From contig JBBDTI010000072.1 of assembly GCA_040904565.1 (NCBI GenBank), positions 73,122-91,926 of the forward strand: a DNA stretch of 18,805 nt, in the 5' to 3' direction. This DNA is from Rhodothermales bacterium (GTDB taxonomy: Bacteria > Bacteroidota > Rhodothermia > Rhodothermales > VXPQ01). This document shows, piece by piece, positions 1 to 18,704 of this stretch (position 1 is the stretch's first letter; every line of letters begins with the position of its first letter). Position numbers and translations under genes: made by a program. A model generated the notes under the pieces. That model saw only the letters and a program-made list of their open reading frames with translations, had not been told where the DNA came from and made no database searches.

Positions 1-1631
1 TCGACGTTGTCACCGTACGTTGCACGGAACTCATATTCCTCGCCCGGCACCAGCGTGGCTTGGGCTTCCGCGCGTACGCTGCTCTCGGTGACCTGGATAT
101 TCCTGGCCTTGCCCATGTCGGAAAACTGCACGCGCCGTCCGGAGGGGCGATAACCCAGGCTGAGCCCGCTGAAGCTCTGTCTGGTGATTTGAGGCGACAG
201 CTTCTGACCGCCTGAGCACGACAGCGAGGCGCGGACCGTATATTCTTGCGCCTCGATCGTCGGCAACCGGACGGTCTGATCGAACGTACCGCTCGGTACC
301 GTAAAGAAGTGCGTAAAAACGACCCCTGATGAAAGGCCGACCGTAACGTACCCCATCCGCCCCGTAGGCAGCAGTACGCCCACATTGCGCGTCAGGGATT
401 GACCGCCCGGCACGACGAACCCGGTTCTGATCGTCCGACTGGTACCGAGTCCTGCAATGCGCACCCAGTTGATGGTCTGAGGCGCGGCATTCGCGGAATT
501 GTCGAACGTGACGGTCATCAGGCGGCTCTTTGGAATCACGCGACGCCAGCTCCACCAGGAGCGACGGTGGCGATGCCAGCTGGCCGCACCGACCTTGTTG
601 GGCGAAGACGCAGCGGCGTCGACCAGCGGCTGCATGTCCACGTTCGCACCTTCTCCACCTACGCAGATCGTCGCGACGACCGTCGGACGCTCGCCGAGCG
701 TGAACGGAACGGCACCGAGGTTGACCTCTTCCAGCCCGTCTATCGACGTGACGACGACATCGGCGTCGTCGACCAATCCCGCTTCGATGGCATCGTACAA
801 TTCTTCATTGTCGACCTCATTCGTCAACGTAAAGGCACATTCACCGGCCTCTTCACCCGCCTCGTAATCGAAGGCCACCTTTCCGGAAGCGTCCGACATC
901 CCGAAGCCGGCCACGCCGAGCAGCGCCTCTTCTTCATTCTCTTTGAGCTGCGACGGAACGGCATCCAGGCCCTCATCGAGGTCGAAGACCTGCAGGTCCG
1001 TCGTGATCTGACCGGTTAACGCCGTACCGTCGGAGCCTAGCGGCTTCGTGCCCTTTTCCACCTTCGCACTCGTGCTGGCCTGCACGTTGTTCTGTTGCGG
1101 CGTCGTGACCGTCACGGACTCCGCAACGCCGGTTTCAGCGGAAGACTGGGTCTGTGAATTCTGTACGCCGGAGGTACCTTGCATCGTGGTTTGCACCTTG
1201 TCCGGCAGCAGCTGAACGGTCACGTTGTTTCCACCCGAATCGACCAGCGCGACATCGACCGTCTCCGACAGATAGCCATCGGCCTCGACGCTAAGACCGA
1301 ATTCGACCGGACTGTTCTCGGTGGGCAGAACGGAATTCTGTATGCCGAAGGTGACCACGCCGCCAGAAGCCCGGATATCGGTAATCGGGTCGCTGTAAAC
1401 GTCGATGATGACGCCTGCATTCTGCCCGGTGAACGAGAGCACCGCACCGGGAATGGACTCGAGCGTCTCGTAGTCGAGCACCTGCGCCGAGACGGTCGTG
1501 TTAATTTCTTCGAGTTCGATGATCAGATCGAAATCGTCGGCGGCCTTGTCGAGTCCGCTTAGATCACATCCTGCGAGAAGGAACGCGACGAGAACCACGC
1601 CGGCGAGAGATCGAAGCGTTTGGATACTCAT
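1..1631 (-). CDS. Large lipoprotein of unknown function, 3'-truncated by the window edge (>543 aa)
   Basis: Not in the ORF track. My translation from ATG at 1631 gives MSIQTLRSLAGVVLVAFLLAGCDLSGLDKAADDFDLIIELEEINTTVSAQVLD... and stays open with no stop to position 1 (...EYEFRATYGDNV). It has a signal peptide II with an LAG|C lipobox and a beta-rich composition. Confidence 0.85.
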   Translation of the reverse strand, partial: MSIQTLRSLAGVVLVAFLLAGCDLSGLDKAADDFDLIIELEEINTTVSAQVLDYETLESIPGAVLSFTGQNAGVIIDVYSDPITDIRASGGVVTFGIQNSVLPTENSPVEFGLSVEADGYLSETVDVALVDSGGNNVTVQLLPDKVQTTMQGTSGVQNSQTQSSAETGVAESVTVTTPQQNNVQASTSAKVEKGTKPLGSDGTALTGQITTDLQVFDLDEGLDAVPSQLKENEEEALLGVAGFGMSDASGKVAFDYEAGEEAGECAFTLTNEVDNEELYDAIEAGLVDDADVVVTSIDGLEEVNLGAVPFTLGERPTVVATICVGGEGANVDMQPLVDAAASSPNKVGAASWHRHRRSWWSWRRVIPKSRLMTVTFDNSANAAPQTINWVRIAGLGTSRTIRTGFVVPGGQSLTRNVGVLLPTGRMGYVTVGLSSGVVFTHFFTVPSGTFDQTVRLPTIEAQEYTVRASLSCSGGQKLSPQITRQSFSGLSLGYRPSGRRVQFSDMGKARNIQVTESSVRAEAQATLVPGEEYEFRATYGDNV

Positions 1632-4447: not shown

Positions 4448-5161
4448 GTGATCCAAAAGGTCCTCATACTCTCGATTGCCCTCGCTTTTACGGTGACCTG
4501 TGCGCGCGCTCAGGAAGAAGAGCGCGAGAGCATCCGTATTGAGGCGGAGCTTATCACCGGAACGGATGCCCTGACCGGGCAGACGGCGGACTCGTTTGAT
4601 GGACAGGCAACGCAGGCGCCGGGTATTGCGCCAGGAATCGCGCCGGGGGATACGGGCGAGCCCGGCACGGATGACGCCGGCGTAGGCGACGATCCGCAGA
4701 CCGGGCAGCAGCAGGCCGTCGGGCAGCAGCCCGAAGGTGGACAGCAACCCGCTGCCAATCAACCGCAGCAGAGCGTCAATGATGTTGCTGCCCAACTTGC
4801 CGGCTCCGCGCTGTCGGGGAACTTGAGCCTCGCGGACACCGCGATGGTCGCCGCTCTGAACGCCGGAAGCCGGTCGCAACGCCAGAATGTGGATGCCCTG
4901 GTTTCGATCACCGTGATCGACGCCGACGGCAATATTAGAACCTCGACGATGCGGAACGGGGATTTGAATCCCGAGCTGCTCGCTCCGTCCGCCGGCCTCC
5001 GCACGACCTTCGGCGCCGACCCTAGTGTGGGTCAGGACGCGGCGTTCGTGCCGCAGCAGGCGCAGACGGCGGCACAACAGTCAGTATTCGCCGGCGACAT
5101 CATGCGCCGATCCGCGGGTACGACGTATTTCTACATTCAGGTCTGCAGCTGCGGGCTATAG
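4448..5161 (+). CDS. Secreted hypothetical protein, Gln/Gly/Pro/Asp-rich, first gene of the pilus locus
   Basis: GTG start, signal peptide ending ARA|Q, low-complexity GIAPGIAPG and QQP repeats. Its stop is 4 bp before the next ATG (5166). Confidence 0.7.
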   Translation: MIQKVLILSIALAFTVTCARAQEEERESIRIEAELITGTDALTGQTADSFDGQATQAPGIAPGIAPGDTGEPGTDDAGVGDDPQTGQQQAVGQQPEGGQQPAANQPQQSVNDVAAQLAGSALSGNLSLADTAMVAALNAGSRSQRQNVDALVSITVIDADGNIRTSTMRNGDLNPELLAPSAGLRTTFGADPSVGQDAAFVPQQAQTAAQQSVFAGDIMRRSAGTTYFYIQVCSCGL

Positions 5162-5165
5162 GGAG

Positions 5166-5744
5166 ATGAACCTGACGAGACGATCCATATCGAGCAGCGT
5201 ACCGGGTGCGGCCCGCCTGGTGAGATACCTCTCCTTGCTGGCTGCCCTCGCGCTAGCCGGCGTGCATGCCGGCCTGGCCCAACAGATTCGGAGAACGACG
5301 CCCGTCGCCGCTAATATCGGCATTGAGGTTCAAATCGCACAGTCCCTCTCGCTGGTTGCAACAAACGACCTGAGTTTCGGGCAAATTCCGACGTCGAATG
5401 CAGGCGGACAGGTGTTCATCCGCCACGACGAGCCGGATGCCGGCCGTTTCGAGTTGCGGGGCTCCGGAAGCAACGATATCGTCGTGAACTACGTCGCTCC
5501 CACGCAGCTTACGAACGAATCCGGGGCGGGCGTCATCGGCGTCAATCTCGAACTCTACGGAACGACGTCCCAGGGAAATGCCTCAAGCGCGGAGCGCCTG
5601 CTGCAGAATGAAACCGTTTCGTTGTCGGGTGGCCGCTACTTCTTTTTCGTGGGCGGCGAGCTCGTAATCGGTCCGGTTTCCTCCAATCCGCCCGGCATCT
5701 ACGTCGGCGAATTCGAGTTGGAAGTTTCCTACCTCAACTTATGA
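5166..5744 (+). CDS. DUF4402-like / chaperone-usher pilin subunit (probable minor pilin)
   Basis: Start reassigned to ATG 5166 (same frame as the 5025 ORF). Signal peptide ending GLA|Q, NDLSFG motif and C-terminal PGIYVGEFELEVSY, matching the G-x-Y-x-G alternating terminal strand of this pilin type. Confidence 0.75.
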   Translation: MNLTRRSISSSVPGAARLVRYLSLLAALALAGVHAGLAQQIRRTTPVAANIGIEVQIAQSLSLVATNDLSFGQIPTSNAGGQVFIRHDEPDAGRFELRGSGSNDIVVNYVAPTQLTNESGAGVIGVNLELYGTTSQGNASSAERLLQNETVSLSGGRYFFFVGGELVIGPVSSNPPGIYVGEFELEVSYLNL

Positions 5745-5961
5745 ACTTTGCATGAATTATCCTTGAGAGACTTAGCATATTGGCGTGGACGGCGCGAACT
5801 GTCGTACCATTTATCTGCACAATATTCTGTAAAGTGAGATGGATACGACGAGCCAACCTTCGCGAGTGCACTGACCAGACGGCATTCTTTCTACCGACAG
5901 AAACCACCGTCTGAACCACCATTTGAACATCAACATCCCCATCCACCGAACACACAAGACC

Positions 5962-6459
5962 ATGAAGAGAGCACTATTAACCGCATTTTTGACCGTGGCG
6001 CTCGTGGGTGCCGCGCAGGCGCAGAGCAATCTGTCGCAATTCCAGAATCTCACGGAGGCTACGGCAGATGTCACCGTGTTGACCACAATTATTCAGCCGA
6101 TTACGGCTAACACCACGGGGAATATCGACTTTGGAATCGTTGAGCACGATCCAAGTGGAACTACGTCCGGGATTAACGCGCTGGAAACGGCTACGCTTGA
6201 CGTGACGGCGTTCCCAGGCTCCACCATTGACGTTGAAGGGGACGCGACAGTAACTCTCAACGCTGCTGATGGGGGTGGAGGAACGGTAACGTTCAACCCG
6301 GCCGGACCCAATACGGATAATATTACCATTCCGACTGGTGGCGGGGCATCGGCTACCCGGACCGGTATTGACCTCTCGGGTACGCTCTCGATTGACGGCA
6401 ACGCATTCGGCGGTTACAATGGGACGTATACGCTGACGTTTAACTACAGCTCGATCTAA
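5962..6459 (+). CDS. DUF4402-like pilin, probable major subunit (165 aa)
   Basis: ATG 5962 gives MKRALLTAFLTVALVGAAQA|Q. It has GNIDFG and C-terminal GGYNGTYTLTFNY motifs, is Thr/Gly/Asn-rich, has its own AT-rich upstream region and is followed by a strong terminator. Confidence 0.78.
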   Translation: MKRALLTAFLTVALVGAAQAQSNLSQFQNLTEATADVTVLTTIIQPITANTTGNIDFGIVEHDPSGTTSGINALETATLDVTAFPGSTIDVEGDATVTLNAADGGGGTVTFNPAGPNTDNITIPTGGGASATRTGIDLSGTLSIDGNAFGGYNGTYTLTFNYSSI

Positions 6460-6522
6460 ATCGAGTTCGAAGCGCCTACGGGCAGATAGGCCAGGCTCCT
6501 GCATAACTATTCTGCCGATCAT

Positions 6523-6563
6523 AGGGGAGTGCCGCAAGCACATTGCGCGCACTCCCCTTTTTG
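6523..6563 (+). terminator. Rho-independent terminator after the probable major pilin
   Basis: AGGGGAGTGC-CGCAA-gcaca-TTGCG-c-GCACTCCCCT is a ~15-bp stem with one bulge, and its final T begins a TTTTTG tract. Confidence 0.85.
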
Positions 6564-6657
6564 TATCGGAAATATGTCGGTGTATCGCGCCGGATCAACC
6601 GTCCGGCGATGATCGTACGCCCCGTCAATCGTCACGCCCGCCACGTTCCACCATTCC

Positions 6658-7593
6658 ATGGCACGTATCGAAGCCGTATTTCGCCGATATCTCGCCGTCT
6701 TCGCGGTCCTTGTCTCTGCGTTTGGACCGAGTAGCACCGTGGCACAGGGCCCGCCTCAATACTTAGAGGTCGTACCGCTGTCCGACCTGGATTACGGGGT
6801 GCTCTCGAGCGGGGCCGGATCCGTCACCGTCGATACGGAATATCCGTACATCGCGTCGTTTCAGATTCGCGCGCGGCTGGCGCTCCCGCCGGGTACGTTT
6901 CCGGAGGTGGATCTTACCTTCGTGCCGCCGGCGTCGCTTTCGGGTCCCGGTGACGCGATCCCGTACACCATGAATGCGTCCACGAACTCACAGGTGGACA
7001 ACCCGGACGGATCGACGCCCGTCAGCGGCACGACGGCGAGAATCACGCTCGAGAACTATGAGGGCACCGAACAGGGTCTTCCCGTATACAGTGCCTATGC
7101 CTACGCGTTCGGCACGATCGACGTCTCGTCCTCGGCCCACGGTGGCTATAACGCGTCCCTTCAGCTGCGAGCGGAGCCCGTCTTCAACGTCCCCCCAATC
7201 TGTCTATCCGACGAATGGAATCCCAACCGCAGGTATCGCGCGGGAGACAGCGTCACGTATGATGGAGCCGCCTGGGAAGCCAACCGCCGCACGCGAGGTG
7301 ACGAACCGGGTGCGTGGCCCGGAGGAGGCGACGATGATGACGATGAGGATGAGGACGAAGATGATGATGACGAAGAAGACGACGAAGATGGTGGCGGCAG
7401 CCGGATTACCATCTGCCACATTCCCCCAGGCAATCCCGGAAATCAGCAGACGATGACCGTTTCACGGAATGCGCTTTCGGTGCACCTCGGTCACGGGGAC
7501 CACGAGGGGCCTTGCCTTGGTGACGGTGACGGTGACGATGACGACGGTTTTGGACCCGGCAGTCCATGGGACCTTATTACGACCTGCCCATAA
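6658..7593 (+). CDS. Pilin-domain protein with C-terminal CBM5/12-like domain and His/Cys insert (putative tip adhesin)
   Basis: Signal peptide, pilin domain with SDLDYG and GGYNASLQL, then EWNPNRRYRAGDSVTYDGAAWEA..TRGDEPG...SPW (ChtBD3/CBM5-12 pattern). That domain is interrupted by a 20-residue D/E run and ITICHIPPGNP...HLGHGDHEGPC. Confidence 0.75.
   Translation: MARIEAVFRRYLAVFAVLVSAFGPSSTVAQGPPQYLEVVPLSDLDYGVLSSGAGSVTVDTEYPYIASFQIRARLALPPGTFPEVDLTFVPPASLSGPGDAIPYTMNASTNSQVDNPDGSTPVSGTTARITLENYEGTEQGLPVYSAYAYAFGTIDVSSSAHGGYNASLQLRAEPVFNVPPICLSDEWNPNRRYRAGDSVTYDGAAWEANRRTRGDEPGAWPGGGDDDDDEDEDEDDDDEEDDEDGGGSRITICHIPPGNPGNQQTMTVSRNALSVHLGHGDHEGPCLGDGDGDDDDGFGPGSPWDLITTCP
7330..7389 (+). repeat. 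GAN trinucleotide tract encoding 20 consecutive Asp/Glu
   Basis: gacgatgatgacgatgaggatgaggacgaagat... translates to DDDDDEDEDEDDDDEEDDED. Confidence 0.9.
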
Positions 7594-7619
7594 TGCCGTA
7601 CTTTGCCCATCATGACCCG

Positions 7620-7636
7620 CGGCTTCACTTTTGTGG
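7620..7636 (+). promoter_or_regulatory. Putative sigma54-like promoter upstream of the chaperone
   Basis: CGGCTTCACTTTTGTGG has the same GGC-N7-TTGTGG spacing as 4277 and 8875 and lies in an AT-rich intergenic gap. Confidence 0.3.
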
Positions 7637-7710
7637 AATATTTTTCGCAAATTTGGCAGGTGATTGCTAGTCTCGCTTATTCCTCTTCATTTCCAGACCG
7701 CACGTCCGTC

Positions 7711-8550
7711 ATGGCCCGTCGACTCAACCTGGTTCTAATGGCGGTCGTCGTTGTAGCGGCCTTCTGTGCCACATCGACGAAGGCGCAGGTATCCGTGGCA
7801 CCCACCGCGCTGTTCCTCAACGACCAGGAACGCTTCGGTACACTCTACATCGGCAACCCGACGTCGACACCGCAGGAGGTGACCATCGGTTTCCGGTTCG
7901 GGTATTCGACGGCGGACTCGACGGGAGCCGTGTACGTCGAGTTCAACGACTCGACGGCCGCGGAGCGGTATTCCATTGCGGAAAACGTTCGCGCGTTCCC
8001 GCAGCGGTTCATCCTCCCGCCGGGTGAAACCCAGGTCGTGCGTATGACGGCCCGGCCCCCGGCGGATTTCGAAGAGGGCTGGATGTGGTCGCGCGTGGTG
8101 ACGACGTCGACCCCGCAGGTCAGCTTTCAGGATACCACGGCGTCGGGCGTACAGGCTAATCTCATCTTCCGCCTGCAGCAGGTCACGGCCCTCTTCTACA
8201 CGAAAGGTGATCCGGAAGTCACGTTGAACGTTGTCGACGTATCGGCGCGCGTCGATTCCAACGAAGTGATCGTTCATGCTGAGATGAACAAGGAAGGCGA
8301 ACGTCCCTTCTTCGGCCGCGTCAATGCCCGGCTTCAGAATGCGGATGGGGACGTAATTGCGGAGGAGATGAACCTGATCGCCGTGTACGTGCCGGAGCGG
8401 CGGCGTTTCGTTATCACCCTGCCGGAAGACGTATCGGAGGGACAGGATCTTCAGGTGGAGCTCACCATCACGCCCGACCGGCAGGACATTCCGTCGGAGT
8501 ACGTCCTCGATTTCTCGCCCATCGTCGCGACGACGCCTGTCACCTGGTAA
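7711..8550 (+). CDS. Periplasmic pilus chaperone (PapD-like, two Ig domains)
   Basis: Start reassigned to ATG 7711. Signal peptide ending TKA|Q, then VSVAPT..F..GTLYIGNP and the characteristic FPQRFILPPGETQVVRM motif. It is 279 aa and lies between the pilins and the usher. Confidence 0.85.
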   Translation: MARRLNLVLMAVVVVAAFCATSTKAQVSVAPTALFLNDQERFGTLYIGNPTSTPQEVTIGFRFGYSTADSTGAVYVEFNDSTAAERYSIAENVRAFPQRFILPPGETQVVRMTARPPADFEEGWMWSRVVTTSTPQVSFQDTTASGVQANLIFRLQQVTALFYTKGDPEVTLNVVDVSARVDSNEVIVHAEMNKEGERPFFGRVNARLQNADGDVIAEEMNLIAVYVPERRRFVITLPEDVSEGQDLQVELTITPDRQDIPSEYVLDFSPIVATTPVTW

Positions 8551-8874
8551 CGTTCGGGCACCGATCCGGCAGACTCTGGACCGGTTCTTCCTGATGGGTC
8601 GGATCGGGCGGTCGGATCTATGTGGGCTCGAGGACGTATTCCCGCATCCTGAAGCGAACGACCATCCTCTAACGAACGATCGCTGTATCCGTCCGCCGTC
8701 CCACTATCGCGGCGGGCTCGTCTCAAAACGATACGTCCACCGACGAGCGTTGACGGGAAATCCGCTCATCCCCACCCAACTGCGGATTCCCCTCCTGCAC
8801 TCGACGCATTCTGACCTGATCGGGAGCCCTTTACGCGGGACCCGCGGCTTAAATAGTACGCCTCTCTCCTATTT

Positions 8875-8891
8875 AGGCATGCTTGTTGTGG
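8875..8891 (+). promoter_or_regulatory. Putative sigma54-like promoter upstream of the usher
   Basis: AGGCATGCTTGTTGTGG has GG-N10-GT spacing and ends 30 bp before ATG 8922. Confidence 0.35.
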
Positions 8892-11627
8892 TCGGTTGTC
8901 GAGACCAGAACCTCGTGCCAGATGTCCACCATCCCCGACCGAATACCGACCCGCTCACATCCCGTGAGCCTCCGGCAGCGCCTGACCCGCGCCTCCCTGG
9001 CATTGGTCTACCTGCTCGTCGGTTTTGGATCGGATGAGGTCGTTGCCCAGGAAGCCCAGCCGGCAGACGATCTGATGGAGGTCTTCTGGGAGTTCCGGTA
9101 CTCCGGGGGCGTCAATACGGTGATCGAGTCGCGCTACGACGGGCAGCGGTTCTACATCTCCATGGGCGACCTATTCGGCGCCCTCCAGGTGAATATCGTT
9201 CAGGAGCCGTCTCAAAACATGGTGCACGGCTTTTTCGTGGATACGAGCCGCCCGTACGAGATCGATTTCAATGCGGGGCGGATGCTGCTCGGCAACACGG
9301 AAATCCGCTTTGATTCCACGGATTTCGTCAGGGAAGAACTCGGCTACTTCCTGGAGCTGAGTCTCTACGAACCGCTGTTCGATATGACGATCACGCTCGA
9401 TGAGCGTAACCTGAGTATGTCGCTTACGACGCCGGACGAGATGCCGGTGGTCGCGGAGGCCCGGCGCCGGGCCAACCGCGTCATCCGAGAGGAGCAGACG
9501 TTCCTGCAGCGCAACGCTCCGCTGCTATTCGACCGCGATCGATCCGTCGCCAGCGGCGGGGTCGTCGGCTATCGTATGTCGACCCAGATGACGGGGACAT
9601 CTCCTCGAGCGTCCTTGAACCTGCGCGGCGGCGGGGAGCTCCTGGGAGGCGACCTGGAACTCGGCCTCAGTGGTAATTACGCCACGGTGGTGACCAGTGG
9701 AGAGTCCTTCAACTTCGACGTCGACTCGTGGCGGTGGCGCTACGTTACACGCAACCTTCCGGCACTTCGGCAGGCACAGGTAGGTGAGCTTTCGTCGGAT
9801 GGACTGCGCTCGTTCTCGTATCGCGGTGCGCGCATATCGAACGATCCGGTCGACGTGCAGCGCTTCTTCGGCTCGTATCCCATGCGCATCGAGTCCGAGC
9901 CGGGCTGGGAGGTCGAAATCTACCTCAACAACCAGCTCATCGACGTCCAGCAGAGCGACGCGACGGGCGTCGTCAATTTCTCCGTGCCGATTACGTATGG
10001 TTCGACATCGGTGACCGTCCGCGAGTACGGACCTACGGGCGAGTATCGAGAATCGCAGCGCCGCATCCAGGTACCGTTCACCTTCGTCCCTCCTGGAGAG
10101 GTCCGCTACAACCTCTTTGCGGGCCAGGCGCTCAATGGCGACAGGGAGCTGGTACAGGCGACGACCTCGATCGGTATTACGAGCTGGCTGACGGCGAAGT
10201 GAGGATTCGATTACGTGACGGCCGACGAATCGAGACCGGGCGAGGAACTCGCCAATCTGTCCTGGGGATCGGTATCGGCCCGCATCGGGCCGTCCTACAT
10301 TTTTACCGTACGAGCGGCCCCCGGCGCGCTCTACAGTGCATCGGCCAACGCCTTCTTCCCGTCGCTGGCTTCGTTCGCTCTCAACTTTACCCAGTACGAG
10401 GAGAATCGCATCTACAATCAGTCCGGGCGGCAGCACGAATCCCGCGCCACGATGAATCTGCCGCTGCGGCTGGGTTCTCTACCGGTGAATCTGCGCACGA
10501 CGGTGAGCGAGCGGATGGACGGCAATGATACCTTCGCATTCACCGGGCAGCAGAACGTGACGTTCAATCCGGGCGTCTTCCGGCTGGACTTAGGGTTTCG
10601 CGGTGACGCCCGGTATATCAACGAAGCGCTGGTACCCTCGAGCATGCGGTTCGAGCCGCGCCTTGGCTATTCCTTCGCGCGCGGCAGCGGCGTTCCGCGT
10701 CCGCTGCGTGGTCTGCTTCTCTCCGTCCGCTCCAGTTACGACGTCAGGGACAGCGACTTTCTGAGTCTCACCGCGAATTTCTCGCGGCGCATCGGCGGCA
10801 GTCTTCGGCTGCAAACGGACATCGGGCAGCAGTTTCAGCGAAATGAGACGACATTCACCGTACGGTTGTCGATGGACCTGAACTCGATCCGAACGACGAC
10901 CGGCGCGCGTATCCGTACGGCCAACGCGCCCTCCTTTACGCAAGACGTGAGCGGAGCACTGAGCTACGATACGGCTTCCGGCCGCCTGGCCGTATCCAAC
11001 CGCGACTGGGTCGGGCGCTCGGCCGCGACGATCCGCATGTTCGTCGATTACAACGGGAACGACCGGCACGACGAAGACGAACCTATCATCGAGAACGGCG
11101 GGGTATCCTTCCGACGCGCCGTATCGACGCAGCGCGGTCCGGACGGGCACCTCCTCGTCTACAATCTGCAGGCCTACGAGCAGTACAATCTGACCGTCGA
11201 CCAGAGCCGCATCCGGAATCCGTTCTGGGTGCCCAAGATGGAGGAGTTCTCGTTCGTGACGGATCCGAACGTGCACAAGCTGATCGAAATCCCCTTTCTC
11301 GTTACGGGTGAGGTATCGGGGTCCGTGCTTCGCGAAGGGGACGCCGGGCTCCGGGCCGTACCCGGACTCCGGCTGCACGTCGAGCAGATCGACGGCACGC
11401 AGTCCTATGAGGAGCCCGTCTTCTCGGACGGATCGTTCTACAAGCTGGGCATTCTTCCTGGCTCGTATCGGGCCTGGGTAGACTCTTCGCAGACACAGAT
11501 ACTCGGCGTGACGTCGGATCCCCCGGTGCAGGAATTCACCGTCGCGCCGTCGGAGATGGGGGATTCCGTCGATGGGATCGATTTCGTCCTGCGCCAGCCG
11601 GATGCCGACGAGGCCGAAGACGGCGAG

Positions 11628-11702
11628 CCGGCAGATGACGCGCCCGAAGACGCCCCTCCGGCAGACGAGGCGCCTGAAGATGCCGCCCCGGCAGACGACG
11701 CG
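11628..11702 (+). repeat. Intragenic 30-bp tandem repeat (2.5 copies) encoding an acidic PADDAPEDAP linker
   Basis: Units beginning ccggcaga start at 11628, 11658 and 11688 and encode PADDAPEDAP / PADEAPEDAA / PADDA. Confidence 0.85.
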
Positions 11703-11723
11703 GATGCGGCCGATTCGGGCCCG

Positions 11724-11882
11724 TACGTGGTCGAGGAGGGACTCGAAGGATTCGAGGGACTCCGCGAGATCGCACGTCGGGTGTACGGCGACACCTCGCT
11801 GTGGCCGAAGATCTGGCTGGCGAACACGGACCTGCTCGACGATCCGAGCGATCTGACGGCCGGGATGGAACTCGTGATTCCG
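11724..11882 (+). other. LysM-like peptidoglycan-binding domain at the usher C-terminus
   Basis: YVVEEG....GLREIARRVYGDTSLWPKIWLANTDLLDDPSDLTAGMELVIP follows the LysM pattern YxVxxGDTLxxIAxxxYGxxxxWxxIxxANxxxxxxPxxLxxGxxLxIP. Confidence 0.85.
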
Positions 11883-11972
11883 GAGCAGGCACCGCTTACG
11901 CCGATCGAGCGTGCGGCCGGTGCAGGATACGAAGCCGAGCTCGAGACGGACGCGCCTGACGACGAATAGGCC

Positions 11973-13868: not shown

Positions 13869-16800
13869 TTACGCCGACTCCCGCGAAAGCAGCACCCACC
13901 CTTCATCAATTTTCGGCTCGGCGTACTTGTACTTGAGCGTTTGTGTTTGTCCGGTAGCGGGATTCTGGATCGTGACCTTTTCATTGCGGCCGATCTTGTT
14001 CTCCACGACGACCGTTTCCTGCTGCGAAGACGGATCGCGTTCGGCGGATGATTGCTGTCCGCCGCCGGCCTTGACGCCGTAGGTAGGCTCCATCGAGTCG
14101 TGCTGTGTCTTGGCCCGCTTCGGGTCCAGGCGCCGCCGCGCGGCAGCCCTCTTCTTCGCCGCCTGATCGCTGACGAGCGGTCCGGCCTTATAGACGAACG
14201 AGACGACCTCTTCATTGACCGTCTCCATCATCTCGGAGAACAACTTGAAGGCCTCCATCTTGTACTCGACGAGGGGATCGCGCTGTCCGTAGGCGCGCAG
14301 CCCGATGCCCTCCTTCGTCTCATCGAGCTCGCGCAGATGCTCCGTCCACTTCTCGTCGATGATGTTGAGCATCGCCGTACGCTCGAGCGTGTCGTTAATA
14401 ATGCGCCCTTCCGTGCCGAGAGCCTCTTCCACCTTCACGACGGCCCGCAGAAGGCGCCGGCCGTTCGTGAAGTCCACGAACACGCGGCTGGGGCGCTTGT
14501 CCTCGTCCTGCTCCATGACCTGCTTCATGCCCTCGTGGAACGGCAGGGCGAGGGCCTCGCGCTTCCTGCGATAGAACTTCAGCGCTTCGTCATAGACGAG
14601 CTGACCGACGCCGTCCTCACCGAGGGCGACGAATCGCTCGCGCTCCAGATCGAATTCGAACGCCAGCTTCCGGAGCACCTCCTCGTGGAGCTCGTCCAGA
14701 TTGCCGGCACCGTAATGCTTCTCGACGATCTCGGCGATGACCTCCTGCAGCATTTCGAGGATCTCCCCGTGGAACCGGTCGCCCTTCAGGGCATGCAGGC
14801 GATGGTCGTAGATCACCTGCCGCTGCGCGTTCAGCACATCGTCGTATTCGAGCTGGCGCTTGCGTATCGCGAAATTATTCTGCTCGACCTTCTTCTGCGC
14901 TCGGGTGATGCTCTTGTTGACCCAGGGATGCGTGATCACGGCGCCCTCTTCGAGGTTGAGGCGATCCATGACTTTCGAGACGCGGTCCGATCCGAAGAGG
15001 CGCATCAGATCGTCTTCCAGGGACACGTAGAACTGGCTTTCTCCGGGATCCCCCTGACGGCCCGCGCGGCCGCGCAGCTGGAGGTCGATGCGGCGGCTTT
15101 CGTGCCGTTCCGTACCCAGAATGGCGAGTCCGCCTACCTCACGCACCCCCTCGGCGAGCTTGATGTCCGTACCGCGACCGGCCATATTCGTCGCAATCGT
15201 GACGGCGCCTATCCGTCCGGCTTCGGCCACGATGTCGGCCTCCGCCTTGGCCCGATCGCGCCGCGCGTTGAGCACGTTGTGCTTAATGCCCGCGCGCTGC
15301 AGCATGCGCGAGAGCGTCTCCGAAACCTCCACGGACGTCGTACCGACCAGGACGGGCTGTCCCGTCTCGTTGTATTCCGAGATCTTCTCGATGGCGGCGC
15401 GGAATTTCTCGCGGCGCGATTTGAATACGAGATCGTCCTTGTCGTCGCGTACGATCGGCTTATTGGTCGGCACGACGACGACGTCGATTTCGTAGATCTT
15501 CCAGAACTCCTCCGCTTCCGTTTCAGCGGTGCCGGTCATGCCGGACAGCTTGTTGTAGAGACGGAAGTAATTTTGCAGGGTGATGGTGGCATAGGTCTGC
15601 GTGGCCGCCTGAACCTGCACGTCCTCCTTCGCCTCGATCGCCTGGTGGAGACCGTCCGAGTACCGGCGGCCCGACAGCACGCGCCCGGTGTGTTCGTCCA
15701 CGATCTGGACGCGTCCTTCCTGTACGATATATTCTTTGTCCTTCTCGTACAGCGTATAGGCCTTCAGCAGCTGTTCGATGGCGTGCAGCCGCACGGCGCG
15801 CTCGGAGTACAGGTTATAGAGCTGACGCTTCGCCTCCTCTTCCTCTTTCTCGAGGAGGCGGGTGTCGTTCATCAGCTTGTTTTCCTTCTTTTCCTCGTCG
15901 AGCGAATCGTCGGATTCAATCACTTCCTCGAGCTCTCGGCGCTTCCGGGCGTATTCGGCCTCGATCGACGCGATCTCCTCACCCATGTCGGGCAGCACGA
16001 AGAGATCCTCGTCCTCCCCGGCCGAGCGCGCGGCAAATTCTCGGCCTTTTTCCGTCAGCTCGATCGCGTGCTGCTTCTCCTCCAGGGCGAAGTACATGGC
16101 GTCGTCCACGTACGGCATGTTCTTCGCGTTGTCCTGCAGGTAGAAGAACTCCGTCTTCCGGAGCAGCTGCCCGACGCCGGGCTCTTGCAGGAGCTTCTGC
16201 AGCTTCTTATTGCGCGGGAAACCGCGCGAGGCGCGGAGGAGCGCCAGTCCGGCTTTATCCTCCAGCCCGCCGGCGTGCTTGCGATCCCCCGCTTCGAGCG
16301 CTTCATCCCGCTCCTTCAGCTTCTGCTCGGCCTCGCTGGCAAAGCTGGCGACGATCTTCTGCTGTGCGTAAACCAGGTTTTCGATGGTCGGCTTGAGCTC
16401 CTTGAACCGGTCGTCGTCGGACTCCGGCACCGGTCCCGAGATGATGAGCGGCGTACGCGCCTCGTCGATCAGGACGGAGTCGACCTCATCGACGATAGCG
16501 AAGTGGTGCTCGCGCTGGACGAGCTGTTCCGGCTCGACGACAAACGAGTTATCGCGGAGATAATCGAAGCCGAATTCGTTGTTCGTGCCGTACGTGATGT
16601 CGGCCCGGTACGCTTTGCGACGTCCCTCGGAATGCGGATCGTACCTGTCGATGATGTCGACGGTGAGGCCGTGGTACTCGAAAATCGGCCCCATCCACTC
16701 CGCATCGCGCTCCGCCAGATACGGGTTGACGGTAACGAGGTGGCAGCCGCGCCCCGCCAGCGCGTTGAGGTAGAGCGGCAGCACGGCGACGAGCGTCTTC

Positions 16801-17384
16801 CCTTCACCGGTCTTCATCTCGGCGATACGACCCTGGTGCAGCACGACGCCGCCGAGCAGCTGCACGTCGTACGGAACCATGTCCCACTCCACGAGGGAGC
16901 CGCCCGCTTCCCACTCTTCCCCCAGCATGCGACGGCACGTCTCCTTGATGACCGCAAAGGCCTCCGGGACGAGGCTATCGAGCGTCGCCTCGACCGTGTC
17001 GAGCCATTCCTCATCCAGTGCGTCGAGCTCATCGTAGAGCTCCCTGCGCTCGTTCAGTGAGAGTTCGTTATCCCCATCGTCCTGTCCGTTTTCAGGCAGC
17101 GCCGGTGCCTGGCCGTCCGTCCCCTCCGACAACTCCGCGTTGAGCCCCACCGTCTCCCGCTGCCCCTCGCGGAGACGCCGATTGATTTCTGCTTGACGAG
17201 CCTCGATGTCGGCGAGGGCTTCCTGGATCCTCTGCCTGAAATCGTCCGTCTTCCCCCGGAGCTCGTCATCGGTCAGATCGGTTAGATCTTCGCAGCGCTC
17301 GTTGATCTGTTCGACGATCGGCCAGAGCTTCTTGATCTCGCGCTCGTTCTTATCGCCGAAGAGGGATTTGAAAAAGTCTATCAT
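13869..17384 (-). CDS. secA: Preprotein translocase subunit SecA
   Basis: Motifs AEMKTGEGKT, YGTNNEFGFDYLRDN, VDEVDSVLIDEARTPLIISG, ATNMAGRGTDI, GTERHESRRIDLQLRGRAGRQGDPG and QRDPLVEYK. Confidence 0.99.
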   Translation of the reverse strand: MIDFFKSLFGDKNEREIKKLWPIVEQINERCEDLTDLTDDELRGKTDDFRQRIQEALADIEARQAEINRRLREGQRETVGLNAELSEGTDGQAPALPENGQDDGDNELSLNERRELYDELDALDEEWLDTVEATLDSLVPEAFAVIKETCRRMLGEEWEAGGSLVEWDMVPYDVQLLGGVVLHQGRIAEMKTGEGKTLVAVLPLYLNALAGRGCHLVTVNPYLAERDAEWMGPIFEYHGLTVDIIDRYDPHSEGRRKAYRADITYGTNNEFGFDYLRDNSFVVEPEQLVQREHHFAIVDEVDSVLIDEARTPLIISGPVPESDDDRFKELKPTIENLVYAQQKIVASFASEAEQKLKERDEALEAGDRKHAGGLEDKAGLALLRASRGFPRNKKLQKLLQEPGVGQLLRKTEFFYLQDNAKNMPYVDDAMYFALEEKQHAIELTEKGREFAARSAGEDEDLFVLPDMGEEIASIEAEYARKRRELEEVIESDDSLDEEKKENKLMNDTRLLEKEEEEAKRQLYNLYSERAVRLHAIEQLLKAYTLYEKDKEYIVQEGRVQIVDEHTGRVLSGRRYSDGLHQAIEAKEDVQVQAATQTYATITLQNYFRLYNKLSGMTGTAETEAEEFWKIYEIDVVVVPTNKPIVRDDKDDLVFKSRREKFRAAIEKISEYNETGQPVLVGTTSVEVSETLSRMLQRAGIKHNVLNARRDRAKAEADIVAEAGRIGAVTIATNMAGRGTDIKLAEGVREVGGLAILGTERHESRRIDLQLRGRAGRQGDPGESQFYVSLEDDLMRLFGSDRVSKVMDRLNLEEGAVITHPWVNKSITRAQKKVEQNNFAIRKRQLEYDDVLNAQRQVIYDHRLHALKGDRFHGEILEMLQEVIAEIVEKHYGAGNLDELHEEVLRKLAFEFDLERERFVALGEDGVGQLVYDEALKFYRRKREALALPFHEGMKQVMEQDEDKRPSRVFVDFTNGRRLLRAVVKVEEALGTEGRIINDTLERTAMLNIIDEKWTEHLRELDETKEGIGLRAYGQRDPLVEYKMEAFKLFSEMMETVNEEVVSFVYKAGPLVSDQAAKKRAAARRRLDPKRAKTQHDSMEPTYGVKAGGGQQSSAERDPSSQQETVVVENKIGRNEKVTIQNPATGQTQTLKYKYAEPKIDEGWVLLSRESA

Positions 17385-17732
17385 ATCGTGCGGCTATCCT
17401 GAATACAACGTACCGGGCCCGGTCGCCGGAAGATGGGTCGATTGGCGGCAGGCAGAAACCCACACTTATCGGCCGTGATTCTCACGCCACGAAGGGGGAT
17501 CCGTTCCCCGCGACCGCCTGCACGCCGCTCAAAAACGATGCCTCGGTGTGATGAAACCGGTATTCATGCCAATTCGGCGTCTGAACGCGCGCTGCTCGAC
17601 CGAACCATGTGACGATCCCGCAGTATAGAGGGAGCCGCGGCCTTTAGGGGCGTCGAACCGATGCGTAACATACGTTGTGCCGTCGGATTCTTTCTCGAAG
17701 CACTTGTGGCAACCTTCCTCGTAGCCTTCACC

Positions 17733-18704
17733 ATGCCCATACGATCTGCACGGATTGCCTGCCTCGTGCTGCTTTTCGGCGTCGCTGCAACGGTCTCGAA
17801 GGTGCAGGCGCAGACCGCGTTCTCGTTTCTACGCCTGGATCCGTCGGCCCGAGCCGCGTCGCTGGGCGGCGCCTTTTCCGCGGTGTTCGACGACGACGTA
17901 AACGCACTGTTCTACAACCCGGCGCTCCTCAACGATTCGATGCACCGGGCGCTGTCAGTATCCTATCTAAACCACGTCGCAGGCGTTAACGGCGGCTTCG
18001 TCGCACATGCTCGCCACGTGGACGGCCTCGGTACGCTGGGTGCCGGACTCCGATACGTAGGCTGGGGCCGTCTGGATGGATACGATCAGGAAGGTAACGA
18101 GACTGGAGACTTCGGTGCCGGCGACGCCGCACTCACGCTGTCCTTCGCCCGGGCGGAGCAGGATCGGTTTCAATACGGCGCCGGGATCCACGCCGCGTTC
18201 TCAAGCATCGACACCTACAGTGCGACGGCTCTCGCCGCCGACGTGGGCGTCGCTTATCACTTCCCCGACCATCTGCTCACGCTGAGCGCGTCGGCCAACA
18301 ACGTGGGCGTAGTACTCGACCGGCTCGGCGCGTCGCGCGACGAACTACCGCTCGATCTACGCATCGGGCTGTCGAAGCGACTGGCGTACGTGCCCCTCCT
18401 CATTTCCGTTTCCGGATACGATCTGAACCGTGTAGGGGAGGATTCAGGAAACGGAAGCTTCATCGCCGGCGCGTTTCGCCACGTGGCCTTCGGAGGCGAG
18501 TTTCGGTTCAGCGAGGCATTCAACGTGCGTCTGGGTTACAATCACCGTAGACACCAGGATCTCAAGATGAAAAGCCGGCTCGACCTGGCTGGACTCGGAG
18601 TCGGCGTCGGCATCAAGGTCTCAACGTTCCGCTTCGACTACGCATTCAGCTCCTGGTCGTCGCTCGGCGGACTCCATCGCTTTACGCTGCGCACGGTCAT
18701 CTGA
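17733..18704 (+). CDS. porQ: Type IX secretion system beta-barrel PorQ (PorV/PorQ family)
   Basis: Likely start ATG 17733 with a signal peptide ending VQA|Q. Motifs FLRLDPSARAASLGG, FYNPALL, PLDLRIG, RLGYNHRRHQDL and FDYAF. The GYNxRRxxD/EL segment points to PorQ rather than PorV. Confidence 0.75.
   Translation: MPIRSARIACLVLLFGVAATVSKVQAQTAFSFLRLDPSARAASLGGAFSAVFDDDVNALFYNPALLNDSMHRALSVSYLNHVAGVNGGFVAHARHVDGLGTLGAGLRYVGWGRLDGYDQEGNETGDFGAGDAALTLSFARAEQDRFQYGAGIHAAFSSIDTYSATALAADVGVAYHFPDHLLTLSASANNVGVVLDRLGASRDELPLDLRIGLSKRLAYVPLLISVSGYDLNRVGEDSGNGSFIAGAFRHVAFGGEFRFSEAFNVRLGYNHRRHQDLKMKSRLDLAGLGVGVGIKVSTFRFDYAFSSWSSLGGLHRFTLRTVI

Follow-up and report, generated by a model that had tools for sequence, protein, structure and literature searches.

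A CBM5/12-like domain interrupted by acidic linkers and a Cys/His mini-domain in a putatively secreted protein of a Rhodothermales bacterium

The window analyzed here, a stretch of 18,805 nucleotides from the genome of a Rhodothermales bacterium, contains the gene of P0001, a protein whose only full-length match in its own genome is itself (Table 1). A first-pass annotation, made from the sequence alone, had described a carbohydrate-binding module (CBM) of type CBM5/12 that starts at C182 (codon 7201–7203), runs to a GDEPGA motif ending at position 7314, and is then split by a run of acidic residues and a Cys/His module. We rechecked the coordinates and residues given for the split CBM, the acidic run, and the module on the translation and found them to be correct. 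The 20 acidic residues placed inside the loop turned out to form one uninterrupted run. The insert as a whole contains 28 Asp or Glu and two Lys or Arg residues. The motif GDGDGDDDD (aa 288–296) lies in its second linker, and PGSPWDLITTC (aa 300–310) stands near the end of the protein, shortly before the stop codon at 7591–7593. P0001 has four Cys residues in total, at positions 182, 253, 286, and 310.

Table 1. Features of P0001 and its gene (positions in the window; aa, residues of P0001)
Feature	Positions	Strand	Basis
P0001 gene, 311-aa putatively secreted protein, stop codon included	6658..7593	+	ORF list and translation
Signal-peptide-like N-terminus (aa 1–30) with hydrophobic core, ending in TVAQ	6658..6747	+	Sequence inspection
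N-terminal domain (aa 31–176), possibly with a DUF4402-like pilin fold	6748..7185	+	59% identity to the orthologue P0199
CBM5/12 part 1 (C182–W220): staple Cys, core Y193, R210-R211 at the aromatic-pair site	7201..7317	+	PF02839, phylum profile, pLDDT >90, alignments with solved CBM5 domains
Insert of 79 residues (aa 221–299) in the last CBM loop	7318..7554	+	MAFFT gap and P0199 loop at the same site
Run of 20 Asp/Glu (aa 225–244)	7330..7389	+	GAT/GAC/GAA/GAG triplet repeats
Cys/His mini-domain (aa 249–286; I250–C286 = 7405–7515)	7402..7515	+	AF2, invariant columns, family search
Second acidic Gly/Asp linker (aa 287–299)	7516..7554	+	GGTGAC repeat
CBM5/12 part 2 (aa 300–311): last strand, core W304, C-terminal staple C310	7555..7590	+	Matrix, profile, AF2, conservation in P0199

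The Pfam family PF02839 matches aa 186–220 with 29.3 bits (cut-off 26.2); in a six-frame search of the genome, in which this is the sole CBM5/12, the score was 33.1 bits. On Pfam alone, the CBM appears complete, because the match covers profile positions 1–43 of 44 and puts the last Trp of the family on W220. This would agree with a tandem arrangement, in which a CBM ending at W220 precedes a linker, the mini-domain, and a short, unrelated tail, with no nesting at all. However, about eight further residues follow EPGx in solved CBM5 chains, and a domain ending at W220 would leave the staple residue C182 without a partner.

We built a profile from nine CBM5/12 domains of the same phylum, leaving the query out. 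Its positions 3–40 match aa 182–218 of P0001 with 33.6 bits, and the sole other piece is aa 301–311, corresponding to positions 43–53. Taken alone, this last-strand piece is a weak match in HMMER (–1.7 bits, conditional E-value 0.2 for one sequence), which speaks for a tandem arrangement. On a last-strand matrix that likewise excluded the query, however, the same residues score 14.0 bits, compared with 3.2 bits for the next-best site in P0001, and the surroundings of W220 are not found among the six best sites. A score of at least 14.0 bits is reached by 45 of the 4,866,230 11-mers of the six-frame translated genome and, at the ends of ORFs, by one in 36,675, which is P0001 itself. All four MAFFT modes opened a single gap of ∼80 columns at the insert, with the same split each time, and the split profile matched solved CBM5 domains from end to end (E-value 6.4e-11 for 2d49). 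The last strand reads SPWDLITTC (aa 302–310) in P0001 and SPWQLIGQC in the solved domain 4txg.

For structure prediction, alignment A1, which combined CBMs with modules, was discarded, since it misplaced the second halves of the CBMs onto the module. The nested fold was modeled from alignment A2. The two halves had already been joined in A2 by MAFFT, so that the AF2 model is not independent of this alignment. Within this limit, the question raised by the first-pass annotation, whether the two halves fold together, is answered positively: with the insert present, both pack into one CBM5 fold, with pLDDT values of >90 for aa 185–215, ∼89 for strand 304–309, and below 60 for the insert. In the VIA fold search, the model matched the CBM5 of SmChiB (8yug) with a Z score of 8.1 and an rmsd of 1.6 over 50 aligned residues (model range 5..135). 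Further matches were 4hmc (Z 7.9) and 2d49 (Z 7.6, 50/53 aligned), with model ranges extending to 135/136 and thus spanning the insert. Since only 41 residues are available before the insert, an alignment of 50 residues implies that the C-terminal strand belongs to the fold, and AF2 and VIA both put the tail there. The orthologue P0199 keeps both CBM halves as well, here around a different insert, a 38-residue acidic loop with His and Gly but no module, beyond which its last strand reads RPWDLVTIC. Profile, matrix control, AF2 model, and orthologue hence agree with the early proposal of a CBM5/12 that begins at C182 and closes about 80 residues later with PGSPWDLITTC. Given alignment, statistical control, model, fold match, and orthologue, we consider it highly probable that the C-terminus of P0001 has a nested architecture, with the module inside an interrupted CBM5/12 scaffold, and a tandem arrangement very improbable.

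According to excerpts of PMC8449059, CBM5 domains have a disulfide bond linking N- and C-terminus and a core Tyr and Trp (Y265 and W299 in CjCBM5). Such a pair of terminal Cys is present in many, but not all, members of the family. In the alignments, C182 and C310 fall in columns where five of the nine phylum CBMs, as well as 2d49, 4txg, and 9x9r, also have Cys; a sixth phylum CBM carries the C-terminal Cys alone. A2 has two invariant columns, Y193 and W304, which represent the CBM5 core aromatics. The same excerpts state that chitin binding by CBM5 needs a consecutive Y-W or W-W pair, and that a third substrate-binding aromatic, located three positions ahead of the core Trp, is carried by the last-loop segment (PMC8449059). 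In P0001, R210-R211 take the place of the aromatic pair, aligned with the WW of 7okr, 9fbp, 2d49, L020, and L024, which makes chitin binding by this CBM doubtful. Together with an insert that leaves from the binding face, this substitution suggests that the domain is probably no longer a classical chitin binder. No GH18 enzyme was found in the genome of P0001, which is 95% complete. The idea of a basic CBM facing the acidic insert was dropped, since the CBM part has a net charge of –1. In P0199, the aromatic-pair site is Arg-Phe, so that some carbohydrate affinity may remain.

Both linkers of the insert are encoded by DNA repeats, the acidic run with a period of 3 (12.7 copies) and the Gly/Asp linker by GGTGAC with a period of 6 (4.2 copies); the GC3 of the acidic run is 0.40, compared with 0.68 for the whole gene. 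Acidic flanks are not a family-wide trait of the module, since at least 40% Asp/Glu in the 20 upstream residues was found in just 10% of its copies. P0199 can be seen as a natural module-free counterpart of P0001. In a search with the region of aa 176–222, only the P0001 fragment itself was returned, and a metagenome scan with aa 31–220 gave 131 pattern matches with no relative among them. Searching 150 further genomes of the order with P0001 gave nothing but module matches, in 16 of these genomes, and P0199 matched none of the order's other 284 genomes.

The module itself has a much wider distribution. We defined its family by alignment A5, with the signature vCH-PPGNP-...-H-x2-HGD-x2-G-x-C over ∼38 residues. 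A family search, of the kind proposed in the first-pass annotation, mapped the hosts of the module: the family comprises at least 10,617 representatives at an E-value of ≤1e-3 (50% clustering), both bacterial and archaeal, and a single protein can contain as many as 22 copies in tandem. A search with the eight closer sequences of alignment A4 placed the module at no fewer than 535 loci in named genomes, which belong to numerous phyla of Bacteria and to four groups of Archaea. Partner domains include PKD, FG-GAP, cadherin-like, TSP3, RTX, and CHU_C, and a crude heuristic assigned a signal-like hydrophobic N-terminus to 149 of the 179 family proteins starting with Met. Among 196 other module proteins, no further combination with a CBM5/12 was found. 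The His/Cys segment, initially treated as a local oddity, belongs instead to a mobile and very large family of repeats, of which P0001 has one copy.

We found no model of the module in a local copy of Pfam-A (searched with 7 and then 132 family proteins) or in NCBIfam 20.0 (5 proteins); PF27070, a tag on two matches, was rejected as a name, since it is absent from module-only proteins. In the ESM Atlas, the best score was 0.85, in unnamed clusters, and literature searches with the sequence motifs of the module gave no paper on it among the titles listed; we found no solved structure either. AF2 confidently predicted a β-β-α fold for a 45-residue piece (mean pLDDT 92.5, pTM 0.70), with strands at 4–9 and 19–24 and a helix at 25–33, which corresponds in P0001 to a strand at 249–254, the PPGNP loop, a strand at 264–269, and a helix at 270–278. 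The small size of the domain precludes a decisive fold score: VIA gave a best Z of 3.2, for chains like the N-domain of ribosomal protein L9, and Foldseek returned nothing at E ≤1e-3.

An alignment of 81 module sequences contains seven invariant columns: C253, H254, H276, H279, G280, D281, and C286. The count of two Cys and four His in the module, given before, is correct, but family-wide conservation holds for only three of these His (H254, H276, and H279) and not for H282. We analyzed the conservation pattern in 627 gap-free copies from the 198 top-scoring proteins of the family. Both Cys are kept in all 627, and 582 have an unchanged set of H254, H276, H279, and D281 (HHHD). Of this set, one residue is changed in 13 copies, two in 4, three in 4, and all four in 24, and about 0.004 four-fold changes would be expected under independence. 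The 24 four-fold changes fall in 8 proteins, 19 of them in three proteins, and thus reflect few independent events. The constant Cys pair, and the fact that these four residues are kept or lost together, suggest a disulfide bond plus a His3-Asp metal site. The metal-binding loop envisaged before is therefore plausible as far as this pattern goes, and, going by sequence conservation, we slightly favor the assignment of HHHD as a metal site. For the Cys residues, the nested pairing proposed in the first-pass annotation fits well, since the outer pair occupies the positions of the CBM5 N-to-C disulfide and the inner pair is invariant in the gap-free copies; both C182-C310 and C253-C286 are likely to be disulfide bonds.

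The β-β-α layout, with a Cys ending strand 1, two His ending the helix, and both Cys as the most conserved residues, would also suit a zinc-finger-like Cys2His2 knuckle, in which C253 and C286 serve as metal ligands together with two His and no disulfide is formed. The copies that lost HHHD argue against this, because all 24 lack H9, H31, H34, and D36 (module numbering) and retain both Cys, whereas HHHD persists in two copies that lack the first Cys. These separate losses indicate that the Cys pair and the His/Asp set behave as separate units. Moreover, the hosts look extracellular, where paired Cys usually form disulfides. No zinc-finger structure is found among the 50 VIA matches listed, which is uninformative at Z ≤3.2. 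We therefore regard a Cys2His2 knuckle as improbable. A miniature His-Me (HNH-like) nuclease finger seems hardly credible, even though the β-β-α fold, the His ending strand 1, a conserved loop Asn, and a helix His occur in the module and its spacing may resemble that of the HNH motif. Up to 22 tandem copies in surface-type proteins are unlike a catalytic domain, the residue preceding the His is a Cys and not the second His of HNH, no HNH chain is among those 50 VIA matches (best Z 3.2), and Foldseek returned nothing at E ≤1e-3.

We also considered that the insert might be a mere spacer, made of slippage-prone acidic repeats and a common bead domain without a ligand of its own, with the CBM still binding polysaccharide. 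The triplet and hexamer repeats encoding the linkers would fit such a spacer, as would the different, module-free acidic loop of P0199 and the occurrence of the module elsewhere as up to 22 beads between unrelated domains. On the other hand, the CBM5 aromatic pair is Arg-Arg, a GH18 chitinase was not found in the genome, and the loops of both orthologues are acidic and bear His, which suggests selection for composition. The loop also exits from the segment that belongs to the binding face of CBM5 in the excerpts of PMC8449059. We consider a mere spacer unlikely.

The genomic neighborhood appears to provide a pilus context for P0001, as we infer from the adjacent genes encoding DUF4402 proteins. 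Similarity of the N-terminal domain to these neighbors is weak: a BLASTP match to one of them (E-value 0.007) covers the last strand only, and hhalign gives a probability of 18% (E-value 0.0013). Against Pfam, aa 30–180 did not match DUF4402 (PF14352) or any other family even at E ≤5, a literature search on DUF4402 found no paper, and the downstream 'chaperone' and 'usher' genes gave no significant match to a chaperone or usher family. A position of P0001 as an adhesin at the tip of a fiber is based on this operon context and the weak DUF4402-like similarity, and we propose it tentatively.

Based on these observations, we suggest the following model. P0001 would be the secreted product of an operon of the DUF4402, chaperone-usher-like type, and its last 130 residues form a domain within a domain. 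The CBM5/12 fold, stapled by C182 and C310, would act as a rigid frame, in which the last loop, connecting the EPG turn to the final strand with its Trp, has been opened. This loop carries two repeat-encoded poly-acidic tethers and one mobile 38-residue β-β-α mini-domain, itself probably held by the disulfide C253-C286. Its His3-Asp site could bind a divalent metal such as zinc, thereby stabilizing the fold or bridging to a ligand. The CBM would then be more likely to display an acidic, His-rich element at the surface of a pilus-like fiber than to bind chitin in the classical way. This overall account, of a nested domain with disulfides and a metal site displayed on a pilus-like fiber, is the one we are inclined to accept. 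A bolder reading is that the module is a new extracellular metal-binding mini-domain (disulfide plus His3-Asp), one of the more broadly distributed bacterial and archaeal domains still lacking annotation. The CBM5/12 of an adhesin carried on a pilus would then have become a loop-display scaffold, its carbohydrate face disabled by the change from WW to RR and its binding-face loop fitted with an acidically tethered knob that binds metal. We offer this combination as speculative; if true, it would represent a device for metal-ion-dependent or mineral-surface attachment.

P0001 provides a clear natural case in which a CBM of just ∼50 residues has taken up a folded domain, and the pair of P0001 and P0199, with and without the module in the loop, informs how tiny scaffolds tolerate loop grafts. 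The conservation pattern of the module makes the disulfide and the His3-Asp metal site a directly testable prediction. A 'CBM5/12' without the chitin aromatic pair, in a genome in which no GH18 was found, also calls for caution in annotation by domain name.

Several known systems share features with P0001. With CBM5/CBM12 domains (PF02839; ChBD of S. griseus ChiC, 2D49; S. marcescens ChiB; CjCBM5 of C. japonicus, 6Z40), it has in common the Pfam score, the fold (Z 7.6–8.1), the staple Cys, and the core Tyr and Trp. It differs from them by the 79-residue insert in the last loop, by R210-R211 in place of Y-W or W-W, and by the fusion to a pilin-like domain instead of an enzyme. The module may resemble the classical β-β-α metal fingers (C2H2 zinc fingers and His-Me fingers) in its ∼30–40 residues, its β-hairpin plus helix, and the His at the C-terminus of the helix. 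It is set apart by a Cys pair independent of the His/Asp set, an extracellular setting, and tandem arrays, and our searches returned no significant structural or sequence match to such fingers. Like TSP type 3, RTX, and DUF4215 Cys-rich repeats, the module is short, arranged in tandem, and set between acidic linkers, and its hosts are adhesin-like mosaic proteins, several of which contain TSP_3, HemolysinCabind, or DUF4215 as well; the module has its own signature, however, and its putative ligands are His and Asp rather than the Asp/Asn ligands of calcium. Finally, P0001 is comparable to the two-domain chaperone-usher tip adhesins FimH and PapG, since it likewise combines a pilin-like domain, whose pilin nature is weakly indicated, with a binding-type domain and is encoded next to DUF4402 pilin-like and candidate assembly genes. 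The lectin domain of FimH and PapG is N-terminal, and the domain order in P0001 is the reverse.

Every coordinate and residue quoted by the first-pass annotation for the C-terminus of P0001, a 311-residue secreted protein, was right on rechecking. The protein contains exactly four cysteines (residues 182, 253, 286 and 310). Residues 225–244 are 20 consecutive Asp/Glu, and the 79-residue insert at 221–299 holds 28 D/E and only 2 K/R. The Pfam model CBM_5_12 matches residues 186–220 with 29.3 bits (cut-off 26.2), aligning profile positions 1–43 of 44. Taken alone, this Pfam match suggests a complete domain, and the main rival to a nested architecture is accordingly a CBM5/12 that ends at residue 220 and is followed by unrelated sequence. 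The evidence that points the other way comes from a family alignment, a profile with a statistical control, structure prediction with a fold match, and an orthologue.

For the alignment, we compared P0001 with nine CBM5/12 domains, all from other genomes within its phylum. Five of the nine carry C-x4-W at the start and W-x-x-[LIV]-G-x-C at the end, and a sixth (L019) has the C-terminal Cys only. All four MAFFT modes placed P0001 against these domains with one gap of ~80 columns, the first Cys being C182 and the last strand with its Cys being SPWDLITTC. A profile built from the nine domains without P0001 aligned residues 182–218 to positions 3–40 (33.6 bits), followed by a collinear second piece, residues 301–311 at positions 43–53, which is weak by itself (–1.7 bits). 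As a statistical control, we used the emission scores of positions 43–53 as a last-strand matrix. Within P0001, this matrix gives 14.0 bits at 301–311 and at most 3.2 bits elsewhere; across the genome's six-frame ORFs, 14.0 bits is attained by 45 of 4,866,230 11-mers, and among 36,675 ORF ends by one, P0001 itself.

AlphaFold2 modeling of residues 176–311, which depends on the CBM5/12 alignment supplied to it, scored the first CBM part above 90 in pLDDT, the strand 304–309 at ~89 and the insert below 60. The model matches SmChiB (8yug; Z 8.1, rmsd 1.6 Å, 50 residues aligned), a Moritella chitinase (4hmc; Z 7.9) and S. griseus ChiC (2d49; Z 7.6, 50 of 53 residues), with matched ranges running from model residue 5 to 135/136. 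Since 50 residues are aligned and only 41 precede the insert, the C-terminal strand belongs to the matched fold. Searched against solved CBM5 sequences, the split profile also aligns end to end (2d49, E 6.4e-11), and the solved chain 4txg ends in SPWQLIGQC, close to SPWDLITTC of P0001.

The orthologue P0199 (264 residues), which comes from another assembly, was found by a region search with the N-domain of P0001, over which the two proteins share 59% identity. In a global alignment, its first Cys and first CBM part are as in P0001, the module is absent from its 38-residue acidic, Gly- and His-containing loop, and it closes with RPWDLVTIC. The last strand is therefore conserved across two different inserts. 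The first-pass annotation had proposed structure prediction with and without the insert, and P0199 provides the natural, module-free counterpart to that comparison. Together, these results bear out the nested CBM5/12: we hold it to be very probable that the domain of P0001 is split by the insert, and a domain complete at residues 186–220 to be highly improbable. The P0199 loop (residues ~219–255; NAHDWHDDDGDGDEGHG...) is acidic and contains three His, so acidic/His composition is common to both loop versions. No other whole-protein relative of P0001 was found among the order's remaining 284 genomes or in a metagenome scan. The CBM5/12 is the sole one in its genome, and few genomes carry such a domain: 4 of 151 in the order and 5 of 401 in the phylum sample.

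Features of the window around the P0001 gene
Feature	Coordinates	Strand	Remarks
DUF4402 gene upstream of P0001	5025–5744		Pfam E 3e-10
DUF4402 gene upstream of P0001	5923–6459		Pfam E 0.002, under cut-off
P0001 gene	6658–7593	+	ORF, 311 residues; feature under study is its last 390 bases
ORF downstream of P0001	7603–8550		no significant family match
ORF downstream of P0001	8883–10202	+	no significant family match
ORF downstream of P0001	10215–11969	+	no significant family match
PorQ type IX secretion gene	17661–18704

P0001 starts with a signal-peptide-like segment, and the presence of the PorQ gene marks the host as a T9SS-bearing bacterium; the G+C content is ~61%. Reading 4448–11969 as a chaperone-usher-like pilus locus finds partial support: a Pfam search with the N-domain gave no match, and this domain is weakly like the neighboring DUF4402 proteins (BLASTP E 0.007, last strand; hhalign probability 18%). 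The DUF4402 cluster is headed by a 237-residue ORF at 4448–5161 (+), which runs past the annotated start of the ORF that follows; it has a signal-like start, a long Gln/Pro/Gly/Ala-rich low-complexity region and no family match. A third DUF4402 match (G000:C61:10445–10813, +; 38.8 bits, full-length profile) sits on a different contig, so the genome may have a second locus with this type of pilin. The last two ORFs downstream of P0001 lie in a common frame with one TGA between them (10200–10202); joined, they would encode a protein of ~1,030 residues with a weak TcfC E-set-like match (E 0.14) and a LysM-like C-terminus, and may represent an usher-like gene whose TGA reflects a break, a sequencing error or readthrough. 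SecA (13869–17384, –) has 1,171 residues, and the SecA_DEAD profile of 290 positions is spread over residues 6–628, which suggests a motor domain with a large extra insertion beyond the usual preprotein cross-linking domain.

The insert contains a 38-residue Cys/His mini-domain, the module (residues 249–286). All 48 matches of a first homology search contain vCH-PPGNP-...-H-x2-HGD-x2-G-x-C, and, except for P0002, a fragment of P0001 itself, they share only the module (11–25% of the query). Mapping its hosts with the module alone, as the first-pass annotation had advised, revealed a very large family. A profile of 14 copies, searched against cluster representatives, matched 10,617 at E ≤ 1e-3, 3,554 at E ≤ 1e-10 and 189 at E ≤ 1e-30, and a single protein had as many as 22 matched stretches. 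In species-representative genomes, a scan gave at least 535 loci in bacteria and archaea. The best 80 of these are mostly from Bacteroidota (Cytophagales, Flavobacteriales, Saprospiraceae, Bacteroidales, Rhodothermales), and also include Planctomycetota, Acidobacteriota, Nitrospirales, Chloroflexia, Anaerolineales, Gammaproteobacteria, Myxococcales, Leptospiraceae, Omnitrophota, Patescibacteria, Gemmatimonadota, Gaiellaceae, Lentisphaerales, Oligoflexia and Ignavibacteriae, as well as the archaeal Nitrosopumilaceae, Woesearchaeota, Thermoplasmatota and Methanobacteriota. The P0001 genome has one copy. Of 132 family proteins scanned, 83 show no Pfam family whatever, while 49 carry surface-protein domains (DUF5666, PKD-like, SpaA_2, FecR, FG-GAP, cadherin-like, TSP_3, RTX, CHU_C and others). 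A bead-string architecture is exemplified by a Bacteroidia MAG (L047:592–3027, +) with eight copies in 2.5 kb; one short copy has no PPGNP loop, and H-Q-A-HGD replaces H-L-A-HGD in several. No model for the module is present in local Pfam-A or NCBIfam 20.0, though a newer Pfam release may hold one, and a literature search for the motif returned nothing relevant. With an 81-sequence alignment, AlphaFold2 modeled residues 246–290 at a mean pLDDT of 92.5, predicting a strand (249–254), the PPGNP loop, a second strand (264–269) and a helix (270–278); fold searches returned nothing stronger than Z 3.2, with matches to small, common arrangements.

Among 663 module copies from 198 proteins, the two Cys are kept in 648 and 642, H9, H31 and H34 (H254, H276 and H279 of P0001) in 620, 617 and 605, G35 (G280) in 647 and D36 (D281) in 619. 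Both Cys are present in all 627 copies ungapped at these sites. In 582 of them the H-H-H-D set is intact, and one, two, three or all four residues are changed in 13, 4, 4 and 24 copies, respectively; if the sites were independent, ~0.004 four-change copies would be expected. The 24 belong to eight proteins, three of which contribute 19. Conversely, the first Cys is replaced by Thr in two copies that keep H-H-H-D. Since each can persist without the other, the Cys pair and the H-H-H-D set are two separate units. The inner (C253–C286) and outer (C182–C310) pairs probably both form disulfides. The inner pair, most simply a disulfide, would tie strand 1 to the C-terminal segment and bring H254 beside the H279–D281 segment. 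Because the H-H-H-D set is kept or discarded as a whole, we slightly favor H254, H276, H279 and D281 as a putative metal site. Of the four His originally noted, H282 is not conserved. Of the proposed metal-binding loop on a CBM scaffold, the nesting is confirmed, and metal binding is plausible on grounds of residue conservation. Additional Cys, one or two per family member, occur at several loci (L044, L051, L072, L088, L101 and others), placed behind the second strand (TIC/TLC), behind HGD (HGDC) or at both positions; they point to either a second, optional disulfide or a free thiol close to the predicted metal site. We regard this very widespread, apparently unnamed mini-domain, with its predicted disulfide and His3-Asp site, as the more valuable by-product of the analysis.

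GAT-type triplet repeats and a GGTGAC repeat underlie the acidic stretches of P0001, whose GC3 is low; these stretches look like slippage-expanded tethers. Acidic flanks are enriched family-wide (mean D+E 18.5% upstream of the module versus 11.4% overall) but are not general, as D+E reaches 40% or more in 10% of copies.

Madland et al. (J Biol Chem 2021; PMC8449059) describe CBM5 as stabilized by a disulfide between its N- and C-terminal ends, with a core of two aromatics (Y265 and W299 in CjCBM5), an almost fully conserved consecutive Y-W or W-W pair important for chitin binding, and a third surface aromatic, Y296, three residues N-terminal of the core Trp. P0001 likewise has the staple cysteines (C182, C310) and core residues (Y193, W304). 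In place of the aromatic pair, however, it has R210-R211 (R-F in P0199), and its insert falls in the stretch from this pair to the core Trp, where CBM5 has its third binding aromatic. No GH18 was found in its 95%-complete genome. As read from these residues, P0001 thus has a CBM5/12 fold whose usual chitin-binding face is altered twice.
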